A program made the position numbers and the translations under genes. Shown one piece after another: positions 8,866 through 39,946 of a stretch of 64,000 nucleotides of DNA (its first letter is position 1; the number at the start of each line of letters is the position of its first letter). The notes beneath the pieces were generated by a model, which ran no database searches, had not been told where the DNA came from, and saw nothing but the letters and a program-made list of their open reading frames with translations. This DNA is from Octopus sinensis. Its lineage: Eukaryota. The stretch lies in NCBI RefSeq assembly GCF_006345805.1, contig NC_043005.1, positions 48,856,001 to 48,920,000 of the forward strand. The letters run 5' to 3'.

Positions 8866-9129
8866 TATATGTATATAATTTAGAGAAAAACCACTATTAA
8901 ACAATTCAATAAAGAAAGATGTTATTCACACCATATAGAAAACATATACTATAAAAAAAACTTATTTTAAAACAATGAAGTACAATAAATACTACTGTTT
9001 ACTATTTATTGTACTTTATTGATTTAAAATAAAGTTTTTTTTATAGTATATGTTTTCTATATGGTGTGAATAACATCTTTCTTTATTGCATTGTTTAATA
9101 GTCATTTTTCTCTAAATTATATACATATA
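8866..9129. repeat. Long AT-rich palindrome (~125-bp arms, 11-nt loop)
   Basis: 8866-8991 is the near-perfect reverse complement of 9003-9129. Confidence 0.9.
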
Positions 9130-10154: not shown

Positions 10155-10363
10155 TGTATGTATGTATGTATGTATGTATGTATGTATGTATGTGTGTGTG
10201 TGTATGTATGTGTGTATGTATGGTCTTGCTCACACATACAAAGATACACAGATCACAGATGCATACATTATATTTAAGCTAATTACTATGTCACATTTTG
10301 AATGTTGAATATTCAAAACTTGTAAAAAAATAGTACTAATATATTTTTTTTTTTCTATTGCAG

Positions 10364-11850
10364 AAATGAAGACATAGTGCCTCACACTAGCGAGGATGTA
10401 GGTAAATCTGTGATGTCCCAGAATGCAACATATTCTTCCGATGTAGATAGAAGACATGAAGACATAAGTCACAATAGTCAAAGACAGCTTCCTCCAACAA
10501 CTGCCATTGTTAGCGACATCTCTCAAAGGCATGCTTCCGCTTCTACTGCCACAGCTTCTGTTGAGGAACTAAATGGTCAACAGAGCATTGAAGACGTAAG
10601 TAGTAGATTCTCAGAAATAGCTAATCACAGACAACCAGAAAGTCTCGATCATAGAAACTGTGAAGAATTCAATAGTCGACACCTGGATGAAAGCAGCAAT
10701 AGGCAGGAAGTGGGTTACAGACATGTTAATCAGCTTAATAATCGGCATGTTAACGAACATGCTCTCAGGCACTCCGAAGACTTACACCATAGACATAGTG
10801 ATGGCTCATCTCTAAGAATTACTGCTGAAGAATCGACTCTTAGACATCCAGAGGACCCTAGTTTAAGAAATACTGAGGAATCAATTCTCCGACACTCGGA
10901 CGATAACATGCTTCGACATTCAGACGACTCGATCCTACGCTTACCTGACAGCATCGTACAGAGACACGCTGATGAACTGAATAAATGTCATCCAGGAGAA
11001 ATAAGGCATTCAGAAGATTTAAGACATCAAGACGATTTAAGACATCAAGATGATTTAAGACATCAAGATGATTTGAGACACTCTGAAGAATTGAGACCTC
11101 CTGAAAGCCTGAGGCAATCTGAAGATTTGAGACATTCTGATGATCTCAGACACTCTGATGAGTTGAGACATCCAGAGAATTTGAGACATATTGAGAAGCT
11201 GCGTCACCAAGATAGTTTCAGACATTCAGGAGATCTCAGGCATCCCGATGAAATGCATCATCGAGATGACTCGAGACATCAAGACGACCTCCATCATCCT
11301 GAGAGCCTAAGACATCCGGAAGATCTAAAACACCTCGAAGACTTGCGTCATCCGGATGAATTAAGGCATCCAGATGAGTTGAGCTATCGCCATCCTGACC
11401 AGCTAGGTCTTCTCCATCCAGATACAAAATTGAACCATAGGCGACCAGATGAATTGACACCAAGGATTCCAGATGATCTTCGATGTAGGCAAATGGGTGA
11501 ATTAAGTCATAGGCACTCAGATGAGCTTGGTCATAGACTTTCTGACGATCTTGTACCTCAGTTTCCTCAAGATTTAAGCCCAAATAACTCAGATGATCTC
11601 AGTCCACAGCATTCCATTGATGATTTAAATCTTCGGCATCCTGGATCCGACTTTAGTCAGCGATATCATGATGATTTAAGTTTACGAAACCCAGACTCAT
11701 ATCAGCCAAATGTCAGCAGTTACAACAATATCAGCATCAACGAACTTTCACCTCATACACCTCAATCTATTTCACCTTCATCTCTTCCTGATGTTACATG
11801 TCACCTCAATAATGAGGGTATTTTCGTATGTCACTTATGCAACTTTTCAG
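10364..11850 (+). CDS. hb: hunchback coding exon A: His/Arg/Asp repeat region and first half of N-terminal finger 1; first in-frame ATG at 10413
   Basis: Polypyrimidine acceptor ttttctattgcag ends at 10363. The frame is open to the donor CAG|GTGAGT (11850/11851, phase 1). It ends in FVCHLCNFS, which exon B completes into a C-X2-C-X12-H-X3-H finger. An upstream exon is implied but was not located. Confidence 0.85.
10620..11700 (+). repeat. Coding tandem repeat: 21 LRHxDD/E-type hexapeptides (11001-11378) flanked by degenerate octapeptides
   Basis: Read directly from the translation, with 18-nt periodicity such as ttaagacatcaagatgat. Confidence 0.9.
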
Positions 11851-29289: not shown

Positions 29290-29519
29290 TCGCTGGTAAA
29301 GAGGCATTCCAAGAACACACTTCCATCCATTTTAAACATGCATGCCCAATGTGTGAATATAAATCAAGAACCGAAGGAAGACTGAAAAAACATATTGAGA
29401 ACTTTCATAGCAACACTTCTCCAGAACAACTGGCTGCCAATAAACAGAAGAAAGGCAAGATGCCGGCTAAACCAAAGAAATTTACTTGTAAAACTTGTGG
29501 CCATGAAACACCTACAAAG
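29290..29519 (+). CDS. hb: hunchback coding exon B: end of N-finger 1, N-finger 2, start of central finger 1
   Basis: Acceptor (t)n-aaattgcag ends at 29289 (phase 1). Reads (V)AGKEAFQEHTSIH-FKHACPMCEYKSRTEGRLKKHIENFH...FTCKTCGHETPTK. Donor AAG|GTACTT at 29519/29520 is phase 0. Confidence 0.93.
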
Positions 29520-29606: not shown

Positions 29607-30020
29607 ATTTGGTATGTTGATATAATTTTTTTATGCTGAATCCAAATTTGAGCTTCATTTATTCCAGAAAAAAAAATTTAGTAAAACATTACTGAAGTTC
29701 AAAGTTTGATCTCTTTTTAGCCAATCAGAAAACAGAAATCAGTAGCCAGTATTTTCTGTGTGATAGTTATTTATCACAAAACTTGTAGTGGTTACAATGG
29801 TGAAAGTGCCACAGTCATGCCAATACAGTGTCCTTGTTACAGTGACAACAGAGCAGACTATAGCTTTGCTTGTCACTATGGAACGAGACACCAATGTGAG
29901 ATTTACAGTCACGTGTATAATGGTGACTTTCGATTGGCTGTCTTTTTTATTTATTAATTTATGGCAAAAATGCATTTCATTTTCATACTCAGCATACAAG
30001 ACTAAATCAGTATACCAAAT
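29607..30020. mobile_element. Degenerate MITE-like element in intron 2
   Basis: Imperfect inverted termini atttggtatgttgat..tatgctga / tcagcata..atcagtataccaaat, plus internal inverted gccaatc / gattggc. Confidence 0.5.
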
Positions 30021-30500: not shown

Positions 30501-30869
30501 CAGCACATCTATCTTTTGTATTTTTAATGTAGTATATTTAAGACTATATTTTCCAATTTATACTTTTTTTAAATGTTATCTGAGAAAGATTTGGCTACTA
30601 TCTATACTAGTTTGAGTGAGCTTGTAAAGGCGTCCCTTATTAACTAGTATTGATTTCTTTAAAGTTATTTTAATGGCCATAGGTTTTTTTGATAACTGAG
30701 TTCAGAGTTCATTTAGAAAGCCATTTTAATTATGACACCCTGCTTACACATGTACACACAAACCCCAACAGCAGCACAAACTCACAATATTGTTTTATAA
30801 CGTATACTTGCAATGTAATTTTATATGTATTTGTATGTAGTTTTATTAAAACATATTTATAATATAGTT

Positions 30870-31375: not shown

Positions 31376-34327
31376 GTGGAATTCTGGTCACATGCCCGCT
31401 CTCATATGCGAGAGGATAAAGTCTTGAACTGCCAGTTTTGTCCGTTTGTCACTGAGTATAAGCATCATCTGGAGTATCACCTGCGAAATCATATGGGTTC
31501 AAAGCCATTCAAGTGTAGCCAGTGTAATTACCGCTGCGTTAACAAGTCCATGCTAAACAGTCACATGAAATCACATACTAACGTCTACCCATTTCGTTGT
31601 CAGGATTGTGGATATGCTACTAAATATTGCCACAGCCTGAAGCAGCATCTGGATAAGCTAGGACACATGCCATCCACTGTCCTTAACAGTGATGGCAGCC
31701 TTCCCCAAGGACTCGATAACAATGTTTCTCGGCTGAGATTTGCAAAAGGCCGACGTGTCAAAATAGCGTGCAGGGGTCCGACCCTGCGCAAACCCGATAG
31801 GCGCCAGTATATGCAGGGTGGGTTCTTTCCTATGGGGATGCCACCCCAAGTGATGAATGGAACAGTACTCCCACCATACTGGCATTTAATGAACCAGATG
31901 CCTCCGAATGGCTTTCATCCAGCTGTGCCAAGACCACCCCCGCCACTGATTCCAGTCTCTGGGACGCACTCAGGCGATCCGCACCAACATTCACCTCAAC
32001 AACAACAACAGCAATCACCTTCCCAGCAACAACAGCCACCACCACCACCTCCTCCACAACAACAGCAACCACACCAACAACATCCACCAGCACCACAACA
32101 GTCACCACAACAGCAGCAACCACTACCACACCAGCCACCACTCCAACAGCAACCACAACCACAACAGCAGCAGCCTCTGCAGCCGCCGCATAACCAGCAG
32201 CAACCGCAGCCTCTGCAACCACCTCATCCCCCTCATGCCCCTTCACAACAGCTCTCACAAGGCCAGCAGCACACACAGCAGTCACAGGTTCAACTCCCAA
32301 CACAGCCATCGCAGCAACATCCGCAACAGCTTCCACAGCATCATCATCATACACAGCAACAACATCAACAACAGCAGCAGCAACAACAACAACAGCAACA
32401 ACAGCTCTCCACTCTACAACAGTCTCAGAACCAACAACACCAACAACAACAGCAACCACAACAACAACAACCACAACAACCACCACAACAACCACAACAA
32501 CAACCTCCACAACAACAAATGCAACAACAACAGCAAACACAGCAAGCACAGCAGCATCAGCAGCATCCCCCACAAGATATTTCTGTTTCTACCTCAGTGA
32601 CATCTGTTGTCAATTCAGGCTTGTACAAGTGTACCTTCTGCAGTGTAACAACTGAAACTATGGAAGCCTTGAACAACCACCTCTTAAAAGTTCATGCTGC
32701 AGAGAACCAAGATTTATTTAATGCTTTTGGCATTTCCTCTGAAGCACTCCTTGAAGATCACAATTTGCGATCAACAATGATATCAAATACGTTTAATCAA
32801 CCTGATGTTTCAGACACTAAACGAACAGAAACATCAGATTCAATGTATGGAAGCTCTGATACAAATTTTCAGCAGTCAAACAATGGAAGTCCACAATTTA
32901 CTGATATCAAATCTGACATAAAATCAGAGAATGTTCCACCGAAATCTAATGGTGTGGCTACACATTCCATAATTCAGTCCAGTGAGTCAACATCACCCCA
33001 GGCTAGCACAATCAAACAAATGATGAACCGCTTTGGTATGGGTCCTCTTTCTGCATCTCAAGCCAGCCCTGATGTGCCACAAACAACTGAAATTCCTCTG
33101 GACCTACGTAAACCAAAGTCACCGATCATGTCTACTCCTTTCATAGGTGGTGGTCATGACCTTGAAGGCAGAAATAACAACCTTCCTGGTTCTACTGTTC
33201 AGCCAACAAATGTTCTTACTTCCCCCATCACAAGCATCCATAGCTCTGCGATGACAAACATGAAACGTACTCCTTTTCAAGAAGCCATACCTAAGAAACG
33301 ATCTAGAAAAAGCAGAGCATTTAAGCGAGACACTTTTCAAATAAAATATGAAGACCATCTGTCTATGACAGATGTCGATGAGGAACTTTCTCATGGTAAT
33401 AAAAGCAGTAGTGTTAGCCCAGATGTGCCGCCAGATTGCATGGAACCTCAAACCTCTGAGTGTACATCAGATACAGCAGCATATTCCATGTACTCTGCGG
33501 ATAAGAGAAAGACACCGACTGAAGATTACCCTACTGGATCTTTCCGGTCAACTCCAAGCAACGAAAAGAGTCCACAAGGGACGGAAGAACATGTGATCAG
33601 CTATGAACAGCTTCATAAAAGTTTGCAGATTCTCAATGAAGAACTAGAGCATAAACCAGATATCTCTGGTCATCTTCCTAGCGGTCAGCTCAACGAGAGT
33701 ATGTCAGTTTCACAACAACAACAGCAACAACCTCCTCCTCCTCCTCTTCCTCCCCATCCTTCACAGCAGCCAGTACAGCAAAACCCCCAGCTAACATCAC
33801 AGCAACTCCCACAACCTTCAACATCAGCCTCTGTATCATCCGACAGTGTTTCTGGTGATCTCTTACCTGAACAAATGAATCATTTCTTAAACACATATTA
33901 TAGCCAACAAAATTCTTTGTCAGGGATGCATCGTCGGGGTTCTAAAATTGCAATGCAAATAATCCAAGAGACAGGTAGTAGTAGCCAACACCAAGCAAAC
34001 AATCAAACGCCTCCTTCAAATTCAATGCTACCCCCACAACACAATGGGAATGTTCCCCCATTCAGACGTTACCCCATGAATCCCAATGACGGTGGCAATC
34101 CAAACAATAATAGCAATCCAAAAATGGATCGCAAAAACAAAGATCAAGAGAATGAAGAAACATTTGAGTGTGGGCATTGTGGCATTGTCTACAGAAGTTG
34201 TATAATGTATACCATTCACATGGGCTATCATTGCCAACAAGACCCACTTAAATGCAACATGTGTGGACATCAAAGCAGAGATAAGATAGAGTTTTTTATC
34301 CATATTGCCAGAGCACCCCATGTATAA
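31376..34327 (+). CDS. hb: hunchback terminal coding exon C: central fingers, Q/P-rich tract, extra finger, basic box, two C-terminal fingers
   Basis: Acceptor tctttttacttacag ends at 31375. Contains Hb signatures [50 protein letters not shown] and KCNMCG. TAA stop at 34325-34327. Confidence 0.97.
31981..32570 (+). repeat. Coding Gln/Pro/His-rich low-complexity tract (CAA/CAG/CCA)
   Basis: Translation shows polyQ and QQP repeats between central finger 4 and the extra finger. Confidence 0.9.
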
Positions 34328-34545
34328 GTTTTATGGTAACTATGTAAAAAAAAAAAATTATAAAAATAAAAACAAACAAACGAAAAACAAAAACACAGAG
34401 ATAACAAAAAAAAAAGGAAGAGAGAAAGAGAGAGAGAGAGAAAGAGAGAGATAGCAAAATGAGAAAGTGAAAACAATATTTGGTCAATGAGCAGAGATTA
34501 GTGGCAGCTGCACGTCCTTTGTATTCTAACAAAAGCAAACAAGAA

Positions 34546-34607
<62 letters not shown>

Positions 34608-34694
34608 GAGTAATAATAATAATGATGATGATAATGATAAAGATAATGGTCCATGTTAAATTTAGAGTCTCAAAATATCTTGCCAATTCTTAAA

Positions 34695-34704
34695 GTCTCA
34701 GGGA
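34695..34704 (+). promoter_or_regulatory. lin-4/miR-125 family target site (GTCTCAGGGA) in the putative hb 3'UTR
   Basis: Exact complement of miR-125 nt 1-10 (UCCCUGAGAC), about 370 nt after the stop in non-repetitive sequence. Confidence 0.45.
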
Positions 34705-35007
34705 CGGAAATATAACTTGCATTATTCTTAAGACTTTGTTATAATTGGCAAGTGTTCGAAGAAATGTCATATCCACAAACACACACACACACACACTCAT
34801 ACACACACACACACACACATACATACACATGCATGCAAATGCTCACAAACTTACACATATCAACACATACACATACATACACCACCTTTCCCTGTCCTTA
34901 ATTCCATCATTAGTTTTCTTTTGTTTTATTTATTGGTTTCTGTCAAACTTCATATATATATATATATGGGTGAGAGAGGGAGAGGTTTGTGTGTACATAT
35001 AAATATG

Positions 35008-35056
<49 letters not shown>

Positions 35057-35292
35057 ATGAGCGTGTGTATGTGTGTGTGCGTATATATACACATGTATAT
35101 ATCCTCGAGGCAGTTGATGTATATATATAAACACACTGTACGTACACAAATATATGTACATATATATACATATATATATATATACACACACATATATATA
35201 TATGTATACATATATATACACACATATATATATATATACATATATGTATATATGTAAACAGGTATATATACATGTATATATAAATATATGCC

Positions 35293-35328
<36 letters not shown>

Positions 35329-35443
35329 TATATAGATATAGATATATATATATATATATAAACTCACTGTACGTACACACACATATATACATATATATAT
35401 ACACACACACACATACATAAGCATATATATTAACCTAAATTCA

Positions 35444-35477
<34 letters not shown>

Positions 35478-35806
35478 ATATATATATATATATCAATAAT
35501 ATACAAATACTATGTATATATATATAGCTTTAGGACTGAAACATAAGAGTATATATGTATATATGTGTATGTATATAAAACAAGGTTAAATGTGGTATTT
35601 TTCTTGAAAAATGCCTCTGTAATTTTCATTTCTGTAGCTTAACTTCCAAATATTTGGTTATTATTTCTTAAATATGGCTGTCCAGTTTGATTGTTCAAAT
35701 TGCTTATAAATATCTCTTCTGGCACTAAACAGCTGAGAGACACTCTTACTTTGTTGCTTGACATTGTTTTCCTCAAATCTTATGAAGACCTTCTTCAATA
35801 AATTAG

Positions 35807-35866
<60 letters not shown>

Positions 35867-35880
35867 TAAATATATGTATG

Positions 35881-35934
<54 letters not shown>

Positions 35935-36103
35935 ATATATATATATATATATATAAAATTGAATTTACAAATGAGAGAGAAAATACGTTAAGTACAGATT
36001 AATTATTTATTTTTATTTATTTATATACTCGTTATTAGAAGTTTGAAACTTCTTGCTAGGATCACTTCAAGTTTTGCAATTCCAATTATCAAATATGTGT
36101 GTC

Positions 36104-36169
<66 letters not shown>

Positions 36170-36240
36170 ACACACACATATATATATGTATGTATGCATG
36201 TATATACACGTATTCATATATATATTCATATATATGTATA

Positions 36241-36285
<45 letters not shown>

Positions 36286-37306
36286 GACATATATGTACAG
36301 ACGCATATATGTGTGTGTATCTATGACAGTGTATTTATAAGTATGCATGTGTAGGTGGGTGTGTATATTTGTTTGGGGGAGATGTTGGTGGTGGGGAGCT
36401 GTACATTTTTTTTCCTAAATTTCAATGAACATAGAATTCTAATCCACTTTTAGCAAAATATTTGAGTGACTTTTCATATAATTCTTATATGTATGTAATA
36501 ACTGTTTCATTGACATCTTGTATCAGTCAGTTTCTGTCGTATTCTTTGGTATAAACAGGAACTAAACACAGAACAATAATAATGATAATAATAATAATAA
36601 TAATAATAATGATAATAAATTTATATAACACACACACGTAAGGATTAGGAACTTACATATCTGGAAATATGCATATATCTATGCTTCCATCCATCCATAT
36701 ATATATATGTATGTATATGTGTGCATGCATATATATATAATAATAATAATAATAACAATAGTAATACATGCACACATGTGTGTGTGTGTCTGTATACATA
36801 TTCATATATTAATACAAATTAAGTTGCAATAATTGTTTTTTTTTCTTTGGTGAGGGCGGTTGCTAGTCTAAAGCTTATCTTAAATCAAATTCTAATTTTA
36901 AATCAAAACAAGAGAAAGAAGTATTATAAATATTATTCTAGGTTATTTGATAAGTGCCAAATAAAATGCTTGCAAATGCCAAAATTTGAAATAATTTAAA
37001 TGCTGCATTCTAAATATTGAACTCTTAACATTAATTGAAACAACACACATGATAATCCTTTTAGGCTGCAAATATCTTCCATTTTCCGAAGCCATCAAAT
37101 TTATTTTCATTTTTATCGGTATGAATGGTTGAGTGGTTGACACCATTTATTTATAATAATAGATTCAATATTGTGGCAGAAAAGTGAGCTTGGACAAGAA
37201 TGTCTGTATTTAGCTTTCAGTGGTTGCCCCCCCCCCACGCCCTGCTGTCACTAAATGTAATAGATAAAGAAAAAAAGCCTACTAGAAACGATGATAATAA
37301 TAGTGT

Positions 37307-37447: not shown

Positions 37448-37779
37448 GTAGTTGTAATAATAATGATAATAATAATAATAATTATTATTATTATTATTAT
37501 AACAACTATAACAATAATAATAATTATAATAACAACAACAATAAAAATGATGATAATGATGACGATGAAATTAAGAATATGACATCATACAATCATTAAA
37601 TGTATTAAGAACATCTTACCCATAATCTACCTCAACTGCTTGGTGGATAATGTGTAACTACAGTAGATATCATGACAAATTTTTTTCATAATAATAATAA
37701 TAATATATAGTAGCAGTAATAATAATAATAATGATAACAATAATAATAGTAATTATTCTTATTATCATTATCATTAGAA

Positions 37780-39732: not shown

Positions 39733-39946
39733 CGTTATATAATTAGGGTTCAGTAAAATAATTTACCTTACCACACACTGAAACTTTTAGAAATAGCAGT
39801 CAAAACTTTTGAATAAACACTATCTGGGAGACTTTTCTTATAGTAGAAGAAATAGCAGTCAAAACTTTTTGACTGCTATTATCTAAAAGTTTCAGTGTGT
39901 GGTAAAGTAAATTATTTTACTGAACCCTAATTATATAACGTAATAT
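39727..39946. repeat. Fold-back with ~79-bp arms, related to the 14493 palindrome
   Basis: 39727-39805 is inverted relative to 39867-39946. It shares aaatagcagtcaaaa and ttagggt motifs with 14493-14763. Confidence 0.88.

Follow-up and report, generated by a model that had tools for sequence, protein, structure and literature searches.

The closest described system is hbl-1 of C. elegans, the 3' UTR of which is regulated by the let-7 family and contains lin-4 sites (PMC8063082, PMC1043860). In Drosophila, hunchback is controlled through its 3' UTR by the Nanos response element, on which Pumilio, Nanos and Brat act, and Brat is reported to repress the fly gene (PMC4460960). The 3' UTR of p27 has a Pumilio switch for miR-221/222, as summarised in PMC8882679, with the microRNA site inside a stem. 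In octopus, a canonical 8mer response element is defined as a heptamer complementary to nucleotides 2-8 of the microRNA plus an A (PMC9699675). Whether the link between heterochronic microRNAs and hunchback extends beyond the nematodes is an old question; in a literature collection that lacks most subscription journals, no paper treating it in molluscs and no report of miR-125 or miR-31 sites in a mollusc hunchback was found.

The window (the whole 64-kb stretch of octopus DNA that was analysed) contains a hunchback gene followed by a transcribed, probably constrained island that carries a pair of probable canonical microRNA sites, one for miR-125 and one for miR-31, under a predicted hairpin (Table 1). 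The gene is orthologous to hbl-1 and has a site for a heterochronic microRNA, lin-4 being of the miR-125 family. Where hbl-1 has several let-7-family sites, this gene has one for miR-125 and one for miR-31, its nearest let-7 8mer is found 3.3 kb past the stop codon (37627-37634, which may fall outside the UTR), and the octopus case is known from sequence alone. Both sites have the form of the canonical octopus 8mer (PMC9699675), but both are predicted to be paired. As in p27, a microRNA site is placed, here by prediction, within a 3' UTR stem (PMC8882679); unlike p27, the opposite arm has no Pumilio element, two microRNA families are concerned and a regulated opening is only hypothetical. The likeness to the Nanos response element consists of a putative 3' UTR control and a Brat-like UUGUUA, whereas Box B (ATTGTA) is absent from 34328-37300 and there is no paired Box A/Box B. 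An 8mer in the UTR of a transcription factor is ordinary by itself; together with a modest excess of related sites in other hunchback genes it provides a concrete test case for the heterochronic link.

Table 1. Features of the hunchback locus and of the island downstream of it (positions in the window)
Feature	Positions	Strand	Remarks
hunchback internal coding exon, zinc fingers	29290..29519	+	spliced to 31376 (GT..AG) in X13 and X14 contigs
hunchback last coding exon	31376..34327	+	central C2H2 fingers, Q/P-rich linker, C-terminal finger pair; from homologues and tree
AATAAA in A-rich tract	34365..34370	+	38 nt past the hunchback stop
Unique transcribed island flanked by microsatellites	34641..34773	+	0/133 differences in X8, X13, X14
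miR-31 8mer TCTTGCCA	34678..34685	+	masked by the lower helix
Predicted hairpin	34679..34752	+	10-bp lower helix, 2x4 internal loop, 8-bp helix, C-A mismatch, 5-bp helix
miR-125/lin-4 site	34695..34704	+	8mer 34697-34704, match to nt 1-10; masked by the upper helices
A34724 and A34730, opposite C34705 and C34699	34724..34730	+	A-C mismatches, each with a 5' U
UUGUUA, match to Brat NHL motif	34736..34741	+	3' side of the internal loop; short, chance possible

The gene upstream of the island is hunchback, and the homologue search and the tree agree with an earlier note on this DNA, which had given it that name. Among the best 120 of 643 matches, named hunchback homologues predominate, at about 70-78% identity over the fingers. 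The protein has the central C2H2 finger array and the C-terminal finger pair and groups with named hunchback proteins; a FastTree tree, for which the program warns of long-branch joins, places it in a mollusc clade (support 96) beside one close relative. The stop codon is a TAA at 34325-34327 of the plus strand. A probable upstream exon at 10326-11760, with the start of a CHLC finger, includes an 18-nt coding repeat (six residues, H..DLR-like) at 11007-11189. Two A>G differences are found in RNA-type contigs, one at 31461 (X8 and X13), which exchanges K for R in the helix of a finger, and one at 31517 (X8; S>G), both without change in X3 and X14; they are possibly recoding edits, or alleles.

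The island is bordered by an AAT repeat (34546-34640) on one side and by a CA repeat (from 34774) on the other, and is thus the unique stretch between microsatellites that had been described. All 11 sampled words are contained in 20 of the 24 listed sequencing runs (13 studies, five organism labels). Four of these 20 were examined on the island and four on an intron-spanning stretch, three being common to both; three of the 24 runs, possible sources of this DNA, were left out of the contig comparison. Contigs of X8, X13 and X14 cover the whole island, and the fourth run, X7, yielded none. The contigs of X13 and X14 also join the two hunchback exons, and neither run has any depth over five 90-nt bins of unique intron sequence (29645-29914, 30635-30814), which are near-empty in X8 and continuously covered in X3, a DNA-type run. 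None of the listed runs with these words is recorded as RNA; X13 and X14 are taken as such from the splice joint, X8 from the near-empty bins only. The island is transcribed in samples that express hunchback. Because it is present in RNA runs in which hunchback is spliced and the intron is missing, the AATAAA that the earlier note had located at about 34364, and which is present, is probably not the sole end of the mRNA.

The island is likely to be a part of the hunchback 3' UTR. The contigs of X8, X13 and X14 carry no strand information, none of them links the exon to the island, and they stop in the flanking microsatellites, so that we infer both the strand and the continuity with the coding exon. 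This state of the contigs would also be expected if the main mRNA ended at the first AATAAA and the island RNA came from read-through or from a transcript of its own, and octopus 3' UTRs have a median length of only 350-380 nt (PMC9699675). Such an origin is nevertheless scarcely credible, given that the island is found in three RNA-type runs whose unique intron bins are empty and that six conserved-seed matches near a second AATAAA suggest a long UTR. These matches (miR-92, miR-315 twice, miR-8 and miR-96 twice) lie at 36825-36985 around an AATAAA at 36960, which suggests a candidate distal end and a UTR of about 2.7 kb.

One relative provides information about constraint. X14 differs from the window at 10 of 838 coding nucleotides and at none of the 133 nucleotides of the island. 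For five of the coding differences the position is given, and each of these is synonymous (176 such sites); the synonymous divergence is about 3-6%. By Fisher's test the island differs from the synonymous sites with p 0.006 if all 10 differences are synonymous and with p 0.04 if six are, and does not differ significantly from all coding sites (p 0.37). Nothing about constraint can be read from X3, X8 and X13, nor from the labels A, B and C, all of which hardly differ from the window. The runs were ranked by containing all 11 words, a choice that favours identity, and because X14 was selected in this way the constraint on the island is only suggestive; it does not tell which feature of the island is constrained.

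Snail miR-125-5p starts with ucccugagac (PMC12261956), so that its nucleotides 1-10 pair with the decamer GTCTCAGGGA, in agreement with the complementarity to miR-125 claimed before. The decamer is present as a single copy in the 64-kb window, both strands counted. The miR-31 8mer on the same 5' arm is new and is absent from the earlier note; its pairing reaches nucleotide 12 of the microRNA with one G-U pair (the extension was read by eye). The ends of the two sites are 19 nt apart, a spacing within the range usually given for cooperative microRNA sites. Both sites show Watson-Crick complementarity to nucleotides 2-8 and an A opposite nucleotide 1. The microRNA sequences used are those of a snail and a clam, not of octopus (PMC3972184, PMC12261956); the tissue expression of miR-31 is given in PMC9699675. 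Extended 3' pairing to snail miR-125 was rejected, as it is equalled by 38% and 53% of null flanks.

The main rival to a regulatory function is that the matches are non-functional and due to chance, that the hairpin is one of many decayed inverted duplications in this genome and that constraint on the island is absent or serves something else. This is a less probable reading, although one to be taken seriously. Computed from the window's own 8mer rate, two 8mers would occur in a 133-nt island with a probability of about 0.01 for 48 conserved families and 0.07 for the 138 octopus families, and a second 8mer, given the first, with about 0.14 and about 0.35, respectively; for the 138 families, 35% of such islands should contain one 8mer or more. 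Against chance, both matches reach past the seed, the island is unchanged in X14 in spite of the synonymous divergence, and a strand-specific surplus of cluster sites is seen in other hunchbacks (see below).

All the elements of the hairpin in the earlier note, namely the three helices and the miR-125 site on the 5' arm, are in their places, and the computed fold agrees with them. The hairpin starts 352 nt past the hunchback stop. The arms of the lower helix are CTTGCCAATT at 34679 and AATTGGCAAG at 34743, and those of the next helix AAAGTCT at 34692 and AGACTTT at 34731; the 5-bp helix at the top has two G-U pairs and closes a 20-nt loop. The fold has an energy of -22.8 kcal/mol and a z of -3.78, which none of 200 shuffles equals. 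The minus strand is equal to the plus strand (z -3.82), and the whole 133-nt island has a z of -0.89, equalled by 36 of 200 shuffles. The fold is significant only when the hairpin is trimmed to its own ends. The background consisted of 3,246 unmasked 91-nt windows spanning 43.9 kb, in which 22 distinct loci fold at least equally well after GC adjustment, 14 distinct loci have z <= -3.7 (the hairpin is eighth of the 115 that were rescored by shuffling) and 17 loci contain a perfect inverted repeat of at least 10 bp. When the sites were fixed and the flanks shuffled, the miR-125 8mer was buried equally deep in 14 of 1000 shuffles, and both sites in two. The burial is thus unusual in comparison with shuffles, yet such strong hairpins occur about every 3 kb here. 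This frequency, the equal z on the two strands and the weak fold of the island as a whole speak for chance, as do the deep burial of the miR-125 site and the five arm-to-arm differences in the upper stem, which, as read from the sequence, are all transitions, as in a decaying duplication. The best hairpin of the window is an AT-rich inverted repeat at 8948-9047 (z about -12), and an inverted and direct duplication of a unit containing AATAGCAGTC is found at 39792-39880.

Two other origins of the hairpin were considered. A MITE or another interspersed repeat would be present in many copies and was rejected: at 80% likeness the hairpin is represented by one contig per run (RNA-type runs only), in contrast to the repeat-bearing intron, which gives hundreds to thousands. 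The hairpin has approximately the size of a pre-miRNA (about 74 nt), its z is about -3.8 on both strands, its sequence is identical across the runs and the 3' arm of its minus strand opens with a miR-125-like decamer. An unannotated pre-miRNA on either strand is nonetheless very improbable. Rfam gave no match at gathering score anywhere in the window, and of 112 matches to E 10 only a chance snoU18 touches the hairpin, at its start. The Microprocessor stem is about 33-35 bp long, with a well-paired 22-nt duplex, and the hairpin is shorter, with 23 firm and about four weak base pairs; its terminal loop measures 20 nt, and its internal loop is asymmetric.

The miR-125 site does not lie in an accessible context. 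Seven of the eight bases of the seed site have a predicted pair probability of 0.8-1.0, and the computed cost of opening the 8mer is 8.5 kcal/mol, more than for any other of the 25 cluster sites compared; the background median is 4.3, and 6% of 150 background 8-mers are equally closed. Since the site is the least accessible of the 25, its function would be weak. Net binding of miR-125 is still computed to be favourable (-5.7 to -9.0), and the bases facing nucleotides 2-5 of the microRNA, located in the G-U-rich helix beside the loop, are opened at 4.1 kcal/mol. The preferred explanation, held at about an even chance, is that miR-125 and miR-31 repress hunchback canonically through their seed matches, and that the hairpin likely only dampens this repression and is no switch. 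The island in the 3' UTR would recruit ordinary repression by its two perfect seed matches. MiR-125 would enter at the G-U-rich helix adjoining the loop, and the duplex would return more energy than opening the site costs; the hairpin would lower the efficiency of the sites. From the folding model the structure is likely either to dampen the sites or to be incidental. By analogy with nematode hbl-1, we infer that the microRNAs may be co-expressed with hunchback, repress it and have a role in timing.

A more elaborate possibility is that the hairpin is a selected lock. The miR-31 8mer shares an arm with the miR-125 match, so that each helix masks one site, and in the model the opening of one would loosen the other helix. 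A RISC on one site, or a TRIM-NHL protein like Brat bound to the internal loop, would act as a key, and sharp repression would need both keys. The rarity of shuffles that bury both sites, noted above, is consistent with this, as is the absence of change in X14 over the entire island, seeds and rest alike. Coupling between the sites is equally strong in 32 of 1000 shuffles with fixed sites, and in a 201-nt context it is -4.4 kcal/mol; when 34734-34742 is held open, the opening cost of the miR-125 site falls from 8.5 to 3.0. The UUGUUA at 34736 fits the Brat motif given in PMC4460960. The coupling is, however, dependent on context and amounts to -1.7 kcal/mol in the 133-nt island, and many other loci of the window fold better than their shuffles. 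No sequence variant of the hairpin was found in X8, X13 and X14, hence no covariation. Brat-like hexamers occur about once per kb, and the hairpin (34679-34752) is without a Pumilio element; the nearest is at 34992, inside a microsatellite. Burial is not seen at the sites of other clades. There is little to show that the structure is under selection, and such a lock is improbable. If true, either RISC or a Brat-type protein would unzip the hairpin for the other site, and ADAR would close it by editing the two A-C mismatches; a structure that links a pair of microRNA sites in this way would be a logic gate of an unusual kind.

The earlier note had proposed that access to the miR-125 site may be gated by the structure and that ADAR editing or an RNA-binding protein could open it. 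A-C mismatches in a duplex are usual targets of ADAR editing. Editing was modelled by an A>G proxy at 23 positions. At the two A-C mismatches the proxy makes opening 3.9 and 5.2 kcal/mol more costly, and the site closes; at 34694, 34708, 34714 and 34733 it lowers the cost by 1.4-2.2 kcal/mol, which would ease the opening, and the transcript may be edited elsewhere, at 31461 and 31517. No A>G was found in the island in the three runs, of the four examined, that cover it, and contigs drop rare variants. Of 10,053 conserved octopus sites only 39 are reported as edited, and editing is described as decoupled from microRNA function (PMC9699675). An opening of the stem by ADAR that exposes the miR-125 site is therefore highly unlikely, and this part of the proposal is not upheld. 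Burial is not shared by other hunchback genes, in which five miR-125 sites at four loci have opening costs of 3.1-4.9 kcal/mol. An RNA-binding protein might still act as a gate.

Other hunchback genes were collected from a metagenome scan, in which 80 of 116 relatives were retained; scans of genome contigs and of viral contigs gave none. In 40 of the 80 loci the C-terminal finger pair is followed by a stop, and these were reduced to 29 clusters and 12 clades; the other 40, including two truncated loci and L034, which did not pass the filter, were left out, as was the window itself. The downstream stretches are genomic, 227 to 2,500 nt long and unverified as UTRs, and the taxa were read from the tree. 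A miR-125 7mer-m8 is found within 2.5 kb in three of the 12 clades, where 0.81 are expected (p 0.03-0.04), and is absent from nine; within 1 kb it is found in two (p 0.06). The three clades are a divergent lophotrochozoan group, a bivalve and a nematode-like locus, and their sites cannot be aligned with that of the window. For miR-100, let-7 and miR-125 together, miR-100 having been added before the clade data were examined, there are eight clade hits against 3.0 expected (p 0.006 by matched random trios), with four against 3.05 on the antisense strand; 14 other seeds give 35 against 31.7. MiR-31 sites are at background (two against 1.6), and none of the 80 loci has the arrangement of a miR-125 and a miR-31 site. 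In a ranking of 16,384 7mers over the 29 sequences, miR-100 is 1st, miR-125 106th and let-7 214th; the count over 12 clades was preferred because the ranking is inflated by relatedness. As far as sequence matches can tell, these results speak for a loose association of ancient date between hunchback and the cluster, and less for a miR-125 site that stayed fixed. The modest excess agrees with that part of the earlier note which held that heterochronic control is retained, whereas the gating by ADAR attached to it is not borne out. A wider scheme, in which hunchback was an ancestral protostome target of miR-100, let-7 and miR-125, lineages kept different members and the octopus link took the form of the two-key lock, is more doubtful still than the lock by itself.

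The scan also yielded several observations on single loci. The miR-279 7mer is present in six of the 29 sequences (rank 5 of 16,384) and in three of the 12 clades (p 0.05 at 1 kb), downstream of hunchback in L042, L025 and the L012 clade. In the nematode-like locus L007 (6154-6381), a let-7 8mer and a miR-125/lin-4 7mer-m8 lie within 170 nt past the stop. A divergent group of hunchback paralogues (L060, L065 and L067) has one to three miR-100 sites downstream of each gene, and two of these genes are also followed by let-7 sites. Four divergent, pancrustacean-like loci of one clade share a conserved element downstream of hunchback (L012:3590-3660, L017:11090-11160, L021:3870-3940 and L050:1745-1815), consisting, in this order, of TCGG/AAGTTCGG, a miR-100 seed match and a common GA(C/T)TGT. 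The first part is complementary to nucleotides 12-19 of miR-100, a pairing read by eye, and three of the four loci have additional miR-100 7mer-m8 sites. By its sequence, the element makes these hunchback genes strong candidates for genuine miR-100 targets.
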